Of a stretch of DNA of 64,000 nt, positions 4,519-61,537 are shown one piece after another. A model generated the notes under the pieces. The model was not told the origin of the DNA. It saw only the letters and a program-made list of their open reading frames with translations, and searched no databases. The stretch's first letter is position 1, and every line of letters starts with the position of its first letter. The stretch comes from an uncultured Acidobacteriota bacterium. Its GTDB lineage: Bacteria; Acidobacteriota; Terriglobia; Terriglobales; Acidobacteriaceae. The position numbers and the translations under genes were made by a program. The stretch spans positions 106,486 through 170,485 of the forward strand of contig CAWILL010000014.1 of NCBI GenBank assembly GCA_963836945.1, written 5' to 3'.

Positions 4519-4925
4519 TAGGCAGCCGGACCGGACGGCCGCTTCCCGCGTCTTCGGACGCGAGGAGAGGAAAGTCCGAACTCCGCAGAGCAGTGTGCCG
4601 GATAACGTCCGGGACGTCAGGTTCAAGCCTGATGGACGGAAAGTGCCACAGAAAATATACCGCCCCGGAAACGGGGTAAGGGTGAAAAGGTGCGGTAAGA
4701 GCGCACCGCCGCGGCAGTAATGTCGCGGGCAGGGCAAACCCCACACGGAGCAAGACCAAATAGGAAGGAAGCCCGCGGCTTTGGCCGCGAGCACGTGCCG
4801 GCTCGGTGCGTCAAACCTTCGGGTAGGTCGCTAGAGCCGGGCAGCAATGCACGGCCCAGAGGAATGGTCGTCCCGCGGCAGCAATGTTGCGGACAAAATT
4901 CGGCTTACAGGTTCGGCTGCCTTAA
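4519..4925 (+). ncRNA. rnpB: RNase P RNA, bacterial type A
   Basis: Carries GAGGAAAGUCCG (P4 5' strand), ACAGAAAAUAUACCGCC, GGUAAGGGUGAAAAGGUGCGGUAAGAGCGCACC and GGACAAAAUUCGGCUUACAG (P4 3' strand). The termini pair as P1 (GGCAGCCG... / ...CGGCUGCC). Length is about 405 nt. Confidence 0.9.
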
Positions 4926-50087: not shown

Positions 50088-52346
50088 CTAATGGCTGCTT
50101 TTGGGCTTGGACAACTCTACTTCAACCAAGACGGAATAAAACGTAGCCGAGTTGCCCATGTCGGTAAGTTTTTCTGAGGTTAAGCTGTTGATACTCTGAA
50201 ATCCGGGCGCCATCTTCGCCCAATGCAGGCTCGCGGAAACAACTCCTGCTTGCACTTTCCCGTCCACTCGCGCGACCAGTTCCACATCGCCACGATGATT
50301 AAAGACCCGCACCCGGTCGCCATCCGCAATGCCCCGCGCCTGCGCATCGACTGAAGAAATCTCCAGCAATCCCGGTTCCTCCATCTCTTGCACCGAAGGC
50401 ACGTTGGAGAACGTCGTATTGAGAAAGTTGTCGGCCTTCCGCGCCAGCAACTCCAGCGGCAGTCCATTTTGCTTGGCGTGTCGCGATTCCAAAGGCGGCC
50501 GGAACTCCACCACCGGATCGAGACCCTGCGTCTTCAAGGACTCAGAATAGAGTTCGGCTTTTCCCGAAGGAGTCCGAAACCCTCCGCGAGCAAACGGAAG
50601 AAAGGGTTCGAATGTGGGGACAGCCGCCATCGGCTGTCCAGCGGAGCGAAGCTCCGCCGTCGGGTGCCCCACTTGTCCCTGCCTTTGGGAGAAGTGGGGA
50701 TTTTCGCCAACGTCGGTTCCAGAAGCCGCAAACTTCATCCGCACCGCTTCCCGTTCCAGACGTTCGCGACTCATCCCCTCCATCCACGTATCATCCGATC
50801 CCAGCGCCAGATCGATCATCTCATCGACGCTCTCCCGGAAACATTCCTCCTCGAACCCCATGCGCTCCGCCAGACCGCGGAACAACTCCACATTCGACCG
50901 GCACTCGCCCAACGGCTCGATCGCCTGGTTCGATACCTGCACATAGTAGTGCCCGTAGCCCTTCTGCAAATCCTTATGCTCGAAGAAAGTCGTCGCCGGC
51001 AGAACGATATCGGCGTAATCGGTGGTGTCGGTGAAGAACTGCTCATGCACCACCGTAAACAGATCCGGCCGCAGCAATCCACGAATCACCGCTTGATGAT
51101 TCGGACACACCGCCGCCGGATTCGAGTTGTACACGAACAAGGCCTTCACCGGCGGATCATTCACTTTGTTCAGCACACGCCCCAGTTCGACCATATTGAG
51201 CGTTCGAGCTTCGCGCCGGAGAGCGGCATTCATCAGGTCCGGACGCCTCAGGCCTTCTGAATTGAAATCCGCGGCACCGCTCAATGACATCTGCAACCCG
51301 CCTCCAACTTCCTTCCACGATCCGATCACGCACGGCAGCATCACGACGGCCCGCGTCGCCATCCCTCCGCCTTCCGAGCGCTGCACACCATAATTCAGCC
51401 GGATCACCGATGGCCGCACCGTCGCATACTCCCGCGCCAACTTCCGAATGTCTCCCGCCACAATCCCCGTCCACTGCGCCACACGCTCCGGCGGATACGC
51501 TTTCACTTTCTCCCGCAGTTGCTCGAACCCAACCGTGTACTTCGCAACATAATCAGCATCGTGCAGATTCTCGCCGATGATCACATGCATCATTCCGAGC
51601 GCCAGAGCCGCGTCAGTCCCTGGATTGATCGGCAGATACCAGTCGGCGCACTCCGCGGTCCGCGTGCGATACGGATCGATCACCACCAGCTTCGCACCAT
51701 TCCGCCGCGCTTCCGCGATGAACGGCCACAGATGCACATTGTTCCCGTGAATGTTCGAAGCCCACGCGATGATGTACTTCGAATGCCGGAACTGTTCCGG
51801 CTCGGTCCCGAGTTTCACTCCCAGCACCGACTTTAGCCCAGCCTCACCCGCCGCCGAGCAAATCGTGCGATCGAGTTGCGAAGCCCCCAGCCGATGAAAG
51901 AACCGCCGGTCCATCGACCCGCCATTCAGCGCTCCCAAAGTTCCGCCGTAGGAATAAGGCAGAATCGCCTCACTGCCAGACTCCGCCGAGATCGCGAGAA
52001 AACGCGAGGTGATCTCGTCCAAGGCCTCGCCCCATGAAATCCGCCGCCAGACCGAAGAAGTGATTTGTGTGGTGGCAGCCGCCCCCGACTGTCCTGCCTG
52101 TGTGGCGCGGGCGCTTCCGCCCGCGAAGGGCCCTTTAGGGCCGACTCTCTTCATCGGATACATCACCCGGTCCGGTGAATACACCCGATCCAGATACTTC
52201 GCCACCTTCGCGCACAAAAACCCGCGCGTCACCGCATGCTCCGGATCCCCCTGGATCTTCGTAGCTCGCCCGTCCTCGACCGTAATCAGCACCCCGCAAG
52301 CGTCCGGACAATCATGCGGACAAGCGGCACGCACCACTCGCTTCAT
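50088..52346 (-). CDS. Molybdopterin-dependent oxidoreductase (MopB superfamily) with N-terminal 4Fe-4S motif and two in-frame repeat-derived inserts
   Basis: CPHDCPDACG...C cluster, molybdopterin and C-terminal beta-barrel regions (FRTPSGKAELYS, VRVFNHRGDV). Confidence 0.85.
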   Translation of the reverse strand: MKRVVRAACPHDCPDACGVLITVEDGRATKIQGDPEHAVTRGFLCAKVAKYLDRVYSPDRVMYPMKRVGPKGPFAGGSARATQAGQSGAAATTQITSSVWRRISWGEALDEITSRFLAISAESGSEAILPYSYGGTLGALNGGSMDRRFFHRLGASQLDRTICSAAGEAGLKSVLGVKLGTEPEQFRHSKYIIAWASNIHGNNVHLWPFIAEARRNGAKLVVIDPYRTRTAECADWYLPINPGTDAALALGMMHVIIGENLHDADYVAKYTVGFEQLREKVKAYPPERVAQWTGIVAGDIRKLAREYATVRPSVIRLNYGVQRSEGGGMATRAVVMLPCVIGSWKEVGGGLQMSLSGAADFNSEGLRRPDLMNAALRREARTLNMVELGRVLNKVNDPPVKALFVYNSNPAAVCPNHQAVIRGLLRPDLFTVVHEQFFTDTTDYADIVLPATTFFEHKDLQKGYGHYYVQVSNQAIEPLGECRSNVELFRGLAERMGFEEECFRESVDEMIDLALGSDDTWMEGMSRERLEREAVRMKFAASGTDVGENPHFSQRQGQVGHPTAELRSAGQPMAAVPTFEPFLPFARGGFRTPSGKAELYSESLKTQGLDPVVEFRPPLESRHAKQNGLPLELLARKADNFLNTTFSNVPSVQEMEEPGLLEISSVDAQARGIADGDRVRVFNHRGDVELVARVDGKVQAGVVSASLHWAKMAPGFQSINSLTSEKLTDMGNSATFYSVLVEVELSKPKSSH

Positions 52347-52380
52347 AGAGGTCGATTATAAGGGAGCGGCAATACGTGTA

Positions 52381-52495
52381 GCGACAGCCGCCTCGGCTGT
52401 CCCGCGAAGCAAAGCGAGCGGCCCAGAGACGCTGCACTTTGCCGTGAAAAATAATCGAGCTTCGCTCGACCGGACAGCCGAAGGCGGCTGTCCCG
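52381..52495. repeat. Hairpin repeat family 1 (GACAGCCG-N4-CGGCTGTC with adjacent CGAGC-TTC-GCTCG hairpin), two copies in the oxidoreductase leader
   Basis: GACAGCCGCCTCGGCTGTC (52383-52401), CGAGCTTCGCTCG (52456-52468), GGACAGCCGAAGGCGGCTGTCC (52472-52493). An inverted related copy lies at 50616-50657. Confidence 0.75.
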
Positions 52496-52507
52496 TCCCC
52501 ACAAAAA

Positions 52508-53213
52508 ATCGGGATAGGGGGACGATCACTCGTCCTCCCCTCCGACACCACCGTACATGCGGATCCGTATACGGCGGTTCGGCGGGTTGAGCTCGATGTG
52601 AGTAGCCGGGCTTGCGATACAACGCGTCGCCAGAGACCGATTCGGTCCCTTCGTAGACTCCCCTTGGAGCTTCACTCCGCCGGGAATCCGGAAGGCCAAA
52701 CGATTGGCTTTTCGGCCGCGGGTCGTTCCTGAGAACGCGCGCTGTACTCGCCACTCCCTTCCCTTCGGGCCTTCGCTCATCGTTCCCGGCTTGGCCTAGC
52801 TGTTGCTCCGCCTTTCGGCATGGGAGTGCCTCATTATCCTCGCCGACTGCATGACCCACTTTGCCCTCGGCTGACTTCTACGGCATGGTCAGAATGAATC
52901 GCTTCATCCTCCGTCACGTTCTGTGACATGCCGCAGATCTCCCGCGGTAAGTTCGACCGCCTTCGACGCGCAACCGCCGGATTTACCACCAGTGAGCTTG
53001 ATGGATATGGGCTTTGCAGTCATCTGCCCGCTCGCCCGCCACCGTAGGCCTCGTATCCGGTTCTGGTTCATCGGCTCGCGTCTTTGTTCCGCGCTTCTTT
53101 CCGGCCTCGCCTCGCGGCGAGTGTGATTTCACCGTTGCGCTTCGCTATCACTTCACGTCCATCACGTTGTGAAGAGGACTTGCACCTCCCAGCTGTCGAC
53201 CATGCTCGGCACA
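52508..53213 (-). mobile_element. Group II intron, class C (IIC)-like, with no ORF (~706 nt)
   Basis: The 5' end is GUGUGCCGAGCAUGG, 1 nt after a terminator U-tract. Domain V is GAACCGCCGUAUACGGAUCCGCAUGUACGGUGGUG (52546-52580). Domain VI is GGACGA-GUGA-UCGUCC with a bulged A 7 nt before the terminal ...CCCGAU. No reverse-transcriptase ORF. Confidence 0.8.
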
Positions 53214-53214
53214 C

Positions 53215-53246
53215 CAAAAAAAGCGGACGGCCCAAAGGCCGTCCGC
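53215..53246 (-). terminator. Rho-independent terminator of the DUF4382 lipoprotein gene (also the intron insertion context)
   Basis: Minus strand: GCGGACGGCC-UUUG-GGCCGUCCGC followed by eight U. Confidence 0.85.
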
Positions 53247-53266
53247 AGTAGTTCGCTTGGATTCAC

Positions 53267-54664
53267 CTAGTTCTGCGGCGGGTCCGCCACCACTCCCGCA
53301 TAGAACTGCGTCGTCCCGCTGACCGGGTCCTTCAGCAGCAATCCGCGTGTCACCAGCGGAATCGCGGTGGTCTCGGACTGAAGCTGGCTGAGCCCTGTAA
53401 GGTTGATGAAGAACGTCAGGTTGTAGGTATTCACTGTGACCGGCCCACCCACGGAATAGCCGACCAGCCCGTTGTTGTTCAGCAGGAAGTTTCCGGCGTT
53501 TCCGTTGGCGATCGTGACATGCCCCACGTCCAGCGTGCCGTACATCCCCTGCCGCCGCAGCGAGATCATCGCCGGAGTGAACACGCTATTCACAAAGCCG
53601 CCACCGATGAAGATCCGCTGTCCCACTTCAATGGACGTGTTGTCAAACAGCGCGTTGGTAAACGGATTGTCCATGAAGCAGATGTCATATTGCGTGACAG
53701 CGTTGATGTCGATCGTCTGGATCGTGTCCACCCAGCTGACCATGTCCGCGCCGGTTTCACCGATCCACATCGTCACCTGCAGATGACCAGAGCCGTTGGT
53801 ACCAACCTGCAGCACGCGGCCGGACACGAACGACTGTGACGTCGTTACCACCTCCACGCCGCTAGCCATGAGGCTGCCATCGGTCTGGAATCGTCCCTGC
53901 ACTGCCACAAACGCCGGCGTCGCAAGATTATTGATGTTCCATCCGCTATTGAACTGTGTGTTGCTGTTCACGTAAATCGTGAGTTGCCGTCCGTACGGCC
54001 CCTGCAAGACAAACGAATTGTTCCCCGCGCTGACCGAGACCAGTCCGCCCATCAGATCCGTGATTTCGCCATCGGGATCGCTGGCTTTCGTCGCCTTGGC
54101 ATAAATAACCGGGGTCACGATCGCTTGACCACTGCCATTGAGCAGGATCTGTCCGTTAGCATCCACCGAGACGGACTTACGGATATCCACTTCCATCTTG
54201 AGTCCGGCAAGACCGTTACTCGCGACCACCATCGGCGTCGGGAAATTAACCGTGATAGTGTCCGGATTCTGCGGCAGAGCTCCGGTATAGGTGTTCAGCG
54301 CCGGCGGATTCTGCGTCATGTCGACGTAGGAAATCATCGGATTGGCGACGACAAAAGTCACGCTCGTGTAATTCCCTGGCGTAACCGAGTTGAACGCGAG
54401 CGGTGAGCGCAACCCTAGCAGCCGCGCAAAGTCGACTGTGGTTGGCGTCGAGAGCACCGTCGCCGTGCTGCCGCCCTGCTCGTTCAGCGTGATGGAATTA
54501 AGAGTGAGGCTGAAGCCCACGACCGAAGACAGCGGCGCGTCCTCACCCGTCACGAATACCGCGCCTGGCTGAGAGTTCGAGTTCTGTGATGAGGAATTCG
54601 ATCCACATCCGATCCCCATCAAGCTGAGCCCGAGTACCAATGCAATCCCGATGAACTTTTTCAT
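53267..54664 (-). CDS. DUF4382-like lipoprotein
   Basis: Start trimmed to MKKFIGIALVLGLSLMGIGC (lipobox). VFVTGEDAPLSSVVGFSLTLNSITL...TVDFARLLG...GNYTSVTF resembles DUF4382. Confidence 0.75.
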   Translation of the reverse strand: MKKFIGIALVLGLSLMGIGCGSNSSSQNSNSQPGAVFVTGEDAPLSSVVGFSLTLNSITLNEQGGSTATVLSTPTTVDFARLLGLRSPLAFNSVTPGNYTSVTFVVANPMISYVDMTQNPPALNTYTGALPQNPDTITVNFPTPMVVASNGLAGLKMEVDIRKSVSVDANGQILLNGSGQAIVTPVIYAKATKASDPDGEITDLMGGLVSVSAGNNSFVLQGPYGRQLTIYVNSNTQFNSGWNINNLATPAFVAVQGRFQTDGSLMASGVEVVTTSQSFVSGRVLQVGTNGSGHLQVTMWIGETGADMVSWVDTIQTIDINAVTQYDICFMDNPFTNALFDNTSIEVGQRIFIGGGFVNSVFTPAMISLRRQGMYGTLDVGHVTIANGNAGNFLLNNNGLVGYSVGGPVTVNTYNLTFFINLTGLSQLQSETTAIPLVTRGLLLKDPVSGTTQFYAGVVADPPQN

Positions 54665-61316: not shown

Positions 61317-61537
61317 CTGCGATCTAGAAGTTGACCGTGGCCATCTGGCTGCAGTGATCCCCGATGCCCGATCGTTTGTCGTTCATATTCCGTGAATTGT
61401 TGGACGTTCACAAGCCGCGAAGCGGCGATAGAATGCCAGCCCATGGCGCAAGCCATGGGTTTGCGATTTCAGGTCGAACCAGCCCCAATGGGGCAATGGG
61501 GCGAAAGACACTCTCCACAATTCCGAGGCATTCCATC

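Follow-up and report, generated by a model that had tools for sequence, protein, structure and literature searches.

A protein-less group II intron of class C behind a Rho-independent terminator of an uncultured Acidobacteriota bacterium, probably mobilised in trans

Introduction

We describe a group II intron of class C (IIC) that has no open reading frame (ORF) for a reverse transcriptase (RT) and lies on the minus strand of a 64,000-nucleotide (nt) stretch of DNA from an uncultured Acidobacteriota bacterium of the family Acidobacteriaceae (assembly GCA_963836945.1, contig CAWILL010000014.1, positions 106,486 to 170,485). This whole stretch is hereafter called the window, and all coordinates refer to it. 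The element is 707 nt long (52508..53214, delimited by Rfam matches and homologous empty sites), starts with GUGUG, ends with GAU, and sits directly behind the Rho-independent terminator of a lipoprotein gene. Judging from comparisons with its relatives, it is most probably a non-autonomous, ORF-less IIC retroelement that is mobilised in trans by the RT of a full-length sibling, a reading to which we give a probability of roughly 0.8.

IIC introns are known to insert behind terminators (PMC1702495). Bacterial ORF-less introns, a reportedly rare category, usually coexist with related introns that encode an intron-encoded protein (IEP) and may act in trans (PMC4424553); they have also been counted in genome surveys (PMC8919778). 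The name hydrolytic endonucleolytic ribozymes (HYERs) was introduced in 2024 for ORF-less IIC introns that act as nucleases without a protein; HYER1 has a length of 637 nt (PMC11754743, PMC12990946).

Results

The insertion and its ends

On the minus strand, the gene for a DUF4382/DUF5666 lipoprotein (Pfam; stop at 53267) is followed by the hairpin of its Rho-independent terminator (53223..53246, GCGGACGGCC-TTTG-GGCCGTCCGC, 10 base pairs, 9 of them G-C), then by seven T (53222..53216) and a G (53215), and then by the intron. A first-pass annotation, made from the letters alone, had described this terminator with a tail of eight U, followed by an intron of about 706 nt with a GUGYG start at 53213. 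The hairpin and the GUGYG motif stand, while the tail proves to be U7 followed by G (53215..53222, the end of the 5' exon), the start to be 53214 and the length to be 707 nt. The intron opens with GUGUGCCGAGCAUGG from 53214, its GUGUG occupying 53214..53210, and closes with ...CCCCCUAUCCCGAU at 52508, its GAU occupying 52510..52508; the 3' exon then begins with UUUUUGUGGGG (52497..52507, minus strand), the first U of which is the putative intron-binding site 3 (IBS3).

Homologous loci were collected with the lipoprotein, taken from its true start (MKKF...), as query, and matches were obtained on other public contigs. One of them (L023) has the same arrangement of gene and intron at 99.6% identity. 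On contigs with homologues of the lipoprotein that are 94%, 88% and 79% identical, by contrast, the gap to the next gene is only 209, 218 and 119 nt, as opposed to 920 nt here, and that next gene is the same molybdopterin oxidoreductase wherever it could be identified. The empty site of L193 reads ...GCGGACGGCCTTCGGGCCGTCCG-TTTTTTG-C-TTTTTGTGGGGACAGCC... (also written ...CCGTCCG TTTTTTG C TTTTTGTGGGG), which in the alignment equals the window sequence minus 53214..52508, save for one additional C, and the 5' exon there runs directly into the 3' exon. The terminator stem-loop, the DNA motif recognised by introns of class C, is also kept in the empty-site relatives L193, L199 and L195. The element is inserted between G53215 and T52507, and because these homologous empty sites show an uninterrupted exon junction, they support an insertion with exactly the predicted ends rather than speaking against one. 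The insertion is also recent, since a strain whose neighbouring gene is 94% identical keeps the site empty.

The termini expected of a group II intron (5' GUGYG, 3' AY) are present and coincide with the empty-site junction, and sibling copies stop at the identical bases. Besides the window, the site is occupied in L023 and in L179, which is the window's own locus in a more distant strain, with flanks 97.6-99.9% identical. Four independent Logan assemblies of the locus all stop 22 nt inside the intron, as is expected of a repeat. A further contig with the same locus (L024:1870-2800, JGI 3300037845) follows the intron to about its position 588 and then continues into unrelated DNA with a gene for a TPR protein; it is either an assembly chimera at the repeat or a real rearrangement.

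Six domains with class C hallmarks

Two Rfam covariance models match the element above their thresholds: RF02001 (group-II-D1D4-3) at 53121..52951, with 123.2 bits and an E-value of 8e-25, above the curated threshold and far beyond a chance match, and RF00029, which covers domains V and VI, at 52579..52508, with 40.3 bits against a gathering score of 40. RF01998 gives a near-match at 52912..52810, its 33.3 bits lying below the gathering score of 35. An RNAalifold consensus computed for an alignment of ten ORF-less members from four lineages (alignment A4) has six domains and 178 pairs, 71 of them with compensatory changes, and the pairs of domains V and VI are retained in all 10 relatives.

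Projected onto the minus strand of the window, this fold places domain I at 52942..53209, where it includes the RF02001 match and is supported by compensatory pairs, and domain II at 52873..52941 (alignment columns 275-345, with many compensatory pairs). Domain III (52767..52866), which the consensus fold and the RF01998 near-match both indicate, carries an expansion of about 66 nt (about 52779..52846) that is common to rhizobial and soil full-length siblings and absent from the ORF-less families of Bryobacterales, Nitrospirales and Alphaproteobacteria introduced below. A stub of 184 nt makes up domain IV (52580..52763), recognised by homology to full-length siblings and by covariation. Domain V (52547..52578; GAACCGCCGUAUACGGAUCCGCAUGUACGGUGGUG, intron positions 635-669) and domain VI (52510..52545) rest on both RF00029 and the consensus fold. 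The class C domain V with a CGC triad and a 2-nt bulge that had been read from the letters is recovered in the RF00029 alignment, where CGC takes the place of the AGC of the model (model GAGCCGUAU, aligned with CCGCCGUAU), and so is the bulged branch-point A of domain VI, which is 52515, 7 nt ahead of the terminal AU (52509-52508). A CGC rather than an AGC triad in domain V is a trait of class C, as in the Oceanobacillus iheyensis structure. By its termini, its six domains, its triad, its position and its lack of an RT coding sequence, the element is a group II intron, of class C, and ORF-less.

Target recognition by EBS1

Exon-binding site 1 (EBS1) could be located by its complementarity to the exon. 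It is a loop of eight bases, GCAGAUGA, which follows GAGCGAGC in domain I (53020..53027, minus strand), and its CAGA (53026..53023) pairs with the intron-binding site 1 (IBS1) UUUG at the end of the 5' exon (53218..53215, minus strand). Introns of class C are marked by a short EBS1-IBS1 pairing (3-6 base pairs) and an EBS3-IBS3 pairing, without EBS2-IBS2. The loop varies within the family; starting with the third base, it is complementary to the exon just 5' of the intron, and complementarity to exon positions -1 to -4 is found at about ten kinds of insertion site. Examples of loop and exon are AGAAA with UUUCU, UACU with AGUA, AUAU with AUAU, AAAC with GUUU, UAGG with CCUA, CAAGG with UUUUG and CAAU with GUUG, to which a separate alignment adds UGGUUU/AAACCA, AUGG/CCAU and ACAG/CUGU.

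At the locus itself, L023 has the loop GCCAAGGA; its CAAGG, found in L179 as well, pairs perfectly with the UUUUG of the terminator. Over 5 kb, the window and L023 differ at 19 positions, 13 of which fall inside the intron (1.8% vs. 0.14%), and 9 of these 13 are crowded into 53015..53102, around EBS1, with six of the 13 in or next to the EBS1 hairpin. The window's version of this hairpin resembles that of L154, a copy at another terminator. This clustering suggests ectopic conversion or exchange between intron copies.

Sibling copies and candidate RT donors in soil metagenomes

A scan of metagenomes with the 5' 22-mer of the intron as query returned 39 loci, which correspond to about 30 distinct sites. 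Nearly all of these lie directly after a hairpin, usually with a T-run, and a few follow a hairpin without one; a scan for the exact 5' 30-mer preceded by a base other than G gave no match in the metagenomes. An intron directly behind a hairpin or terminator is also found in L007, L012, L046, L053, L110 and L149.

The closest siblings were compared by blastn. L186 is a complete ORF-less copy of 710 nt, 94.6% identical, at a different terminator; L154 is 94% identical as far as the end of its contig at position 615 and lies at yet another terminator; and L166, L174 and L188 are 92-99% identical over their assembled parts and occupy three further ones. Close siblings of 92-99% identity are therefore found behind at least five other terminators, and at least two of them are ORF-less. 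Copies from the same metagenome at different terminators are 97.9-99.6% identical to each other (L179 with L166 and L154; L186 with L174), and such near-identity at different sites within single metagenomes argues for recent movement.

A second group of siblings (L158, L160, L161, L168, L176, L183, L191 and L192) is 88-89% identical to the window element over positions 1-454 (blastn) and up to 94% identical to other ORF-less copies. The two members that are assembled far enough, L161 and L168, run on into a long domain IV. L161 measures 1969 nt and has an intact open frame of 464 codons (about 460 residues from the first Met) with a YADD motif. Its IEP contains the domains RVT_1 and GIIM and nothing else, hence no endonuclease domain, and its best solved match is the GsI-IIC RT (E 4e-143, 480 bits), far ahead of LtrA (147 bits) and a IIB enzyme (117 bits); the IIC enzymes of E. 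rectale and R. intestinalis are also among its best solved relatives. The closeness of this IEP to solved IIC enzymes settles the class of the family, and the placement in class C, already proposed in the first-pass annotation, is supported by the CGC triad, the position behind a terminator, the covariation of EBS1 and IBS1 and the affinity of the sibling IEP alike. In L168 (JGI Ga0209161), the other full-length sibling, a 5' segment of domain IV is duplicated (intron positions ~430-700) and the RT ORF is split across two frames.

The domain IV stub

The internal ORFs of the element, in which no RT motifs had been seen at the outset, have no Pfam match, and tblastn with the RT of a Mesorhizobium IIC intron and with that of a close sibling found no match in the element or elsewhere in the 64-kb window, nor an RT remnant in domain IV. 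The stub is homologous to the 5' region of the IEP ORF of the full-length introns L161, L155, L050 and L022, with which it shares the blocks CUCAUGAGCGG...CUGGCC...GGGGUGAAGCCCC...GGGACCGAAUCG...AAGCCCGGCU. It comprises subdomain IVa (DIVa) and about the first 47 codons of the RT/maturase ORF, with the start codon changed to AGG, joined to the last ~20 nt ahead of domain V. As the alignment to the GsI-IIC RT starts at residue 51 of the sibling IEP, the retained piece corresponds to an N-terminal extension or DIVa, and the deletion takes the whole RT/maturase core.

Among the ORF-less families, the stub folds into 42 pairs, and 89% of the cells in the alignment are paired, compared with 30-43% when the partners are slid against each other; 19 pairs have changes on both sides, and none of 500 shuffles reaches the observed value. 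In well-studied group II introns, DIVa is the high-affinity binding site of the IEP. By analogy with those introns, an IEP supplied in trans would presumably dock at the stub, and the retention of the stub fits dependence on such a protein.

ORF-less families in other lineages

In plasmids, rhizobial and Burkholderia introns match positions 1-470 at about 72% (blastn), and in Mesorhizobium AR02 an annotated ltrA begins 14 nt past the match and a near-identical domain V/VI follows its stop codon. In viral contigs, all matches were either full-length IIC relatives or introns that are unrelated but have a similar domain V.

A domain V scan of 185,579 species genomes returned at least 120 loci. 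The following description holds among the matches listed, which include full-length introns (~1.87 kb) and many short ones with 558-639 nt from the 5' end to domain V; upon extraction, the short loci are ORF-less elements of 629-660 nt. One metagenome-assembled genome (MAG) of the Bryobacterales has copies of 629 nt that are 100% identical at several loci, some in head-to-tail tandem, and also holds a parent of 1877 nt with an intact RT ORF, from which the short form differs by the absence of positions 540-1780 at an identity of about 94%. MAGs of the Nitrospirales have ORF-less copies that are 95-99% identical and always follow one repeated hairpin, and ORF-less elements occur in several genomes of Alphaproteobacteria. 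The ORF-less families of these other lineages keep the same structured domain IV stub. In every ORF-less family, identity is higher to the local full-length intron (89-94%) than to the remaining ORF-less families (67-78%).

The sites of these copies deserve a description of their own. In the Bryobacterales MAG (CBDCFO01), L045:4640-7241 and L096:1423-2679 contain identical 629-nt copies head to tail with the junction ...CCCGAU-UGUGCC..., in which the downstream copy is without its first G, and the array in L045 continues with a full-length copy; homing appears to take place beside another copy's domain VI hairpin. In the Nitrospirales, L036, L072, L082, L056 and L139 are 651-660 nt long and lie behind a hairpin CCUUUUGUUUCGGCAAAAGG followed by ACCCAAAACCA(U), which does not form a U-tract terminator; the tail of this hairpin is matched by complementary EBS1 loops (UGGUUUU or AUGG) in the copies, and L085 lies directly behind another copy.

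A single ancient deletion as the origin of all ORF-less families was considered and set aside, because the families are closer to their local parents and because other deletion sizes exist. Two genome contigs, L055 and L097, hold deletion derivatives of related IIC introns of 952 and 1421 nt, in which parts of the RT ORF are kept, and the ORF is thus eroded in more than one way. Loss of the ORF seems to have been recurrent and to have converged on the same retained module. The closest match listed from an Acidobacteriota genome, L049, is a different degenerate derivative, with a 5' GGUACG and divergent after ~250 nt, and was not used.

Genomic context of the locus

The intron has the same orientation as both flanking genes and ends 161 nt 5' of the ATG of the molybdopterin oxidoreductase gene (52346), in whose leader the first-pass annotation had placed it. 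This placement is probably wrong. A second terminator-like hairpin (52453..52471, minus strand), also present in the empty-site relatives, separates the intron from the gene, and a TATAAT box (52355..52360, minus strand) lies 8 nt 5' of the ATG and is kept in L193, L199, L195 and even the relative with 79% identity. A sigma-70 scan did not call the box at 52360..52355. The gene probably has its own promoter and a leaderless mRNA, both downstream of the intron, so far as the sequence can tell; and because the conserved TATAAT lies between the intron and the ATG, the intron is probably not part of the oxidoreductase leader. Given the intact hairpin and U7 upstream, it should be transcribed only by terminator read-through.

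The spacer 3' of the intron holds two near-identical hairpins (GGGACAGCCG...CGGCUGUC, at ~52475-52497 and ~52385-52407, minus strand), which have a 38-nt inverted match of 89% identity inside the oxidoreductase gene (50617-50654) and are conserved in the empty-site relatives; perhaps they belong to a small repeat family or act as a regulatory hairpin. Elsewhere in the window, RNase P RNA of class A matches at 4523-4923 on the plus strand (284 bits) and the small RNA Acido-Lenti-1 at 61413-61459 on the minus strand (38.4 bits against a gathering score of 37), two matches in keeping with an acidobacterial origin. Judging by the source names of homologues, the organism is a close relation of Candidatus Sulfotelmatobacter (Terriglobia). 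On the plus strand, the GC skew is negative across the whole window, with a mean of -0.065; the G-rich strand, presumably the leading one, is therefore the minus strand, where the intron and its flanking genes lie.

Discussion

A probable trans-mobilised retroelement and its alternatives

Insertion with exact ends, a match between EBS1 and IBS1, many sites occupied by the family and siblings that encode an RT are all seen here. As to how the element arose, we infer an internal deletion in a full-length IIC retroelement, which would have taken out the RT/maturase core, beginning at about codon 48 and ending with the stop codon, and left all six ribozyme domains together with the structured 5' part of domain IV, DIVa. 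Its arrival at this locus would have been by retrohoming, in which, as in known IIC introns, the RT would be supplied in trans and the intron would enter by reverse splicing: the intron RNA and the RT/maturase of a sibling would have recognised the terminator stem-loop in single-stranded DNA, EBS1 would have paired with the final 4-5 bases of the U-tract (UUUG), EBS3 would have paired with the U that follows, and reverse splicing at the end of the U-tract would have been followed by copying into DNA. Reached by read-through transcription only, the element would cost its host little, and splicing, if any, would rejoin UUUUUUUG to UUUUUGUGGGG.

Several observations weigh against this reading. 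No RT gene was found by tblastn in the 64-kb window, which is the region that the search covered, and the siblings come from metagenome contigs and may not share a genome with this locus. The RF00029 match exceeds its gathering score by 0.3 bits, and the EBS1 of the window strain pairs with IBS1 only in a register shifted by one base. In the window copy, partly together with L023, six pairs are broken that are otherwise conserved. The closing stem of domain I has A.G (53206/52945), domain III has G.G (52855/52776), and domain IV has G.G at its base (52763/52580); in domain V, the upper helix starts with A.C (52568/52559); in domain VI, the second pair counted from the base is C.C (52544/52511); and the sixth case is C.A at 53144/53087. 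All six positions hold standard pairs in L186, which has a G-to-A change in the catalytic triad of domain V, such that some family members are decaying; together with the defects of L168, this indicates that decay is under way among autonomous and ORF-less members alike.

One alternative is a ribozyme fossil that was inserted once in the ancestor of the strains, has been inherited vertically and is slowly decaying, with neither efficient splicing nor movement. The filled site in the L023 and L179 strains, whose flanks are 97.6-99.9% identical, the private or near-private mismatches, among them those in domains V and VI and in the closing stem of domain I, and the lack of an RT nearby are what such a fossil would leave, and the window copy may be on its way to becoming one. 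Its 11 non-standard pairs out of 178, however, lie within the range of its multi-copy relatives (4-11), and the triad, the bulge, the branch-point A, GUGUG and the EBS1-IBS1 pairing are all intact. The empty site next to a 94% identical gene makes the insertion recent, siblings at different sites are 98-99.6% identical to one another, and the clustered differences around EBS1 look like exchange between copies, not like random decay. We therefore regard immobility as a real, though unlikely, alternative. The first-pass annotation had left the choice between a trans-mobilised derivative and a fossil undecided; for the family, mobilisation in trans is favoured by the ORF-less copies at other terminators and by the RT-encoding siblings in similar samples, while the activity of the window copy itself is uncertain in view of its private mismatches.

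A ribozyme of the HYER kind, in which the RNA alone would hydrolyse RNA or single-stranded DNA at a short target and perhaps act or spread with no need of an RT, would be in keeping with an ORF-less IIC intron of 0.6-0.7 kb, the general kind and size of HYER1 (637 nt; PMC12990946, PMC11754743), with a short, programmable recognition loop and with the many copies in the family. The likeness to HYER1-6 is one of description, in class and size, rather than of sequence or activity; an RT is required for the step into DNA, and wherever its context is visible the family has RT-encoding siblings alongside; and the conserved DIVa stub suggests dependence on an IEP, so that we consider protein-independent spread improbable. 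Far less probable still is a role as a cis-regulatory leader, in which splicing of the read-through transcript would control expression of the oxidoreductase gene. The shared orientation and the distance of 161 nt to the ATG would permit it, but relatives have the same gene arrangement without the element, the second hairpin and the conserved TATAAT intervene, and sibling copies lie behind unrelated terminators with unrelated neighbours.

Relation to known systems

Like the IEP-bearing IIC introns B.h.I1 of Bacillus halodurans, O.i.I1 of Oceanobacillus iheyensis and GsI-IIC, the element has six domains with a small domain I and a CGC triad, lies 3' of a terminator stem-loop and uses a short EBS1-IBS1 pairing, and the IEP of its sibling lacks an endonuclease and is nearest to the GsI-IIC RT. 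Unlike them, it has no IEP gene, its domain IV being a 184-nt stub, and cannot be autonomous. With the ORF-less introns of Simon et al. (2008), as summarised in PMC4424553, it shares the loss of the ORF, the retained ribozyme, RT-encoding siblings and a non-essential intergenic position. That account describes such introns as rare and mostly immobile, splicing-only forms, whereas here at least six terminators are occupied at 92-99% identity, and analogous families with several to many near-identical copies per genome exist in three other lineages. Like the HYERs, which are natural ORF-less IIC introns of about 0.6 kb (Liu et al., Science 2024, as cited in PMC11754743 and PMC12990946), the element lacks an ORF, falls into class IIC and carries a short sequence for target recognition; owing to the expansion of domain III, it is longer (707 nt) than the 637 nt given there for HYER1. 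Hydrolytic trans-cleavage and dimerisation via a palindromic D3 loop are features of the HYERs themselves.

An analogy of logic only can also be drawn to the miniature inverted-repeat transposable elements of DNA transposons and the short interspersed nuclear elements of long ones (LINEs), in which internally deleted or protein-less copies keep the cis parts used by the machinery of an autonomous partner and can outnumber that partner. The route differs, since here it would be reverse splicing by a ribozyme followed by reverse transcription.

Implications

A text search of the literature for the conserved sequence strings of the family found no paper. The family-level pattern, in which multi-copy ORF-less families of four lineages share a covarying DIVa stub, the EBS1 code can be read and tandem arrays occur, may go beyond what has been described. 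We tentatively propose, while considering it rather doubtful at this stage, that ORF-less IIC introns of this type are recurrent, convergent non-autonomous retroelements rather than sporadic wrecks. They would have arisen repeatedly from local full-length parents in Terriglobia, Bryobacterales, Nitrospirota and Alphaproteobacteria, by deletions that stop at almost identical points and so keep a covarying DIVa of ~165 nt, the IEP docking site, and they would then outnumber their parents and even form head-to-tail arrays. In a bolder version, some of them, possibly including this element, would be natural RNAs of the HYER type with protein-free DNA targeting in soil bacteria, by analogy with the HYERs.

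Annotators of this genome can now mark 707 nt of 'intergenic' DNA as a mobile ribozyme. Bacterial ORF-less group II introns have long been seen as rare dead ends and, since the HYER work, also as candidates for compact, RNA-only nucleases. The locus is an entry to an uncharacterised acidobacterial subfamily whose RT-encoding partners are intact and whose code between EBS1 and target can be read, as well as to parallel multi-copy families in three other lineages with the same domain IV module. It offers a concrete, testable case for the trans-mobilisation of protein-less group II introns, and new sequences for screens for HYER-like activity.

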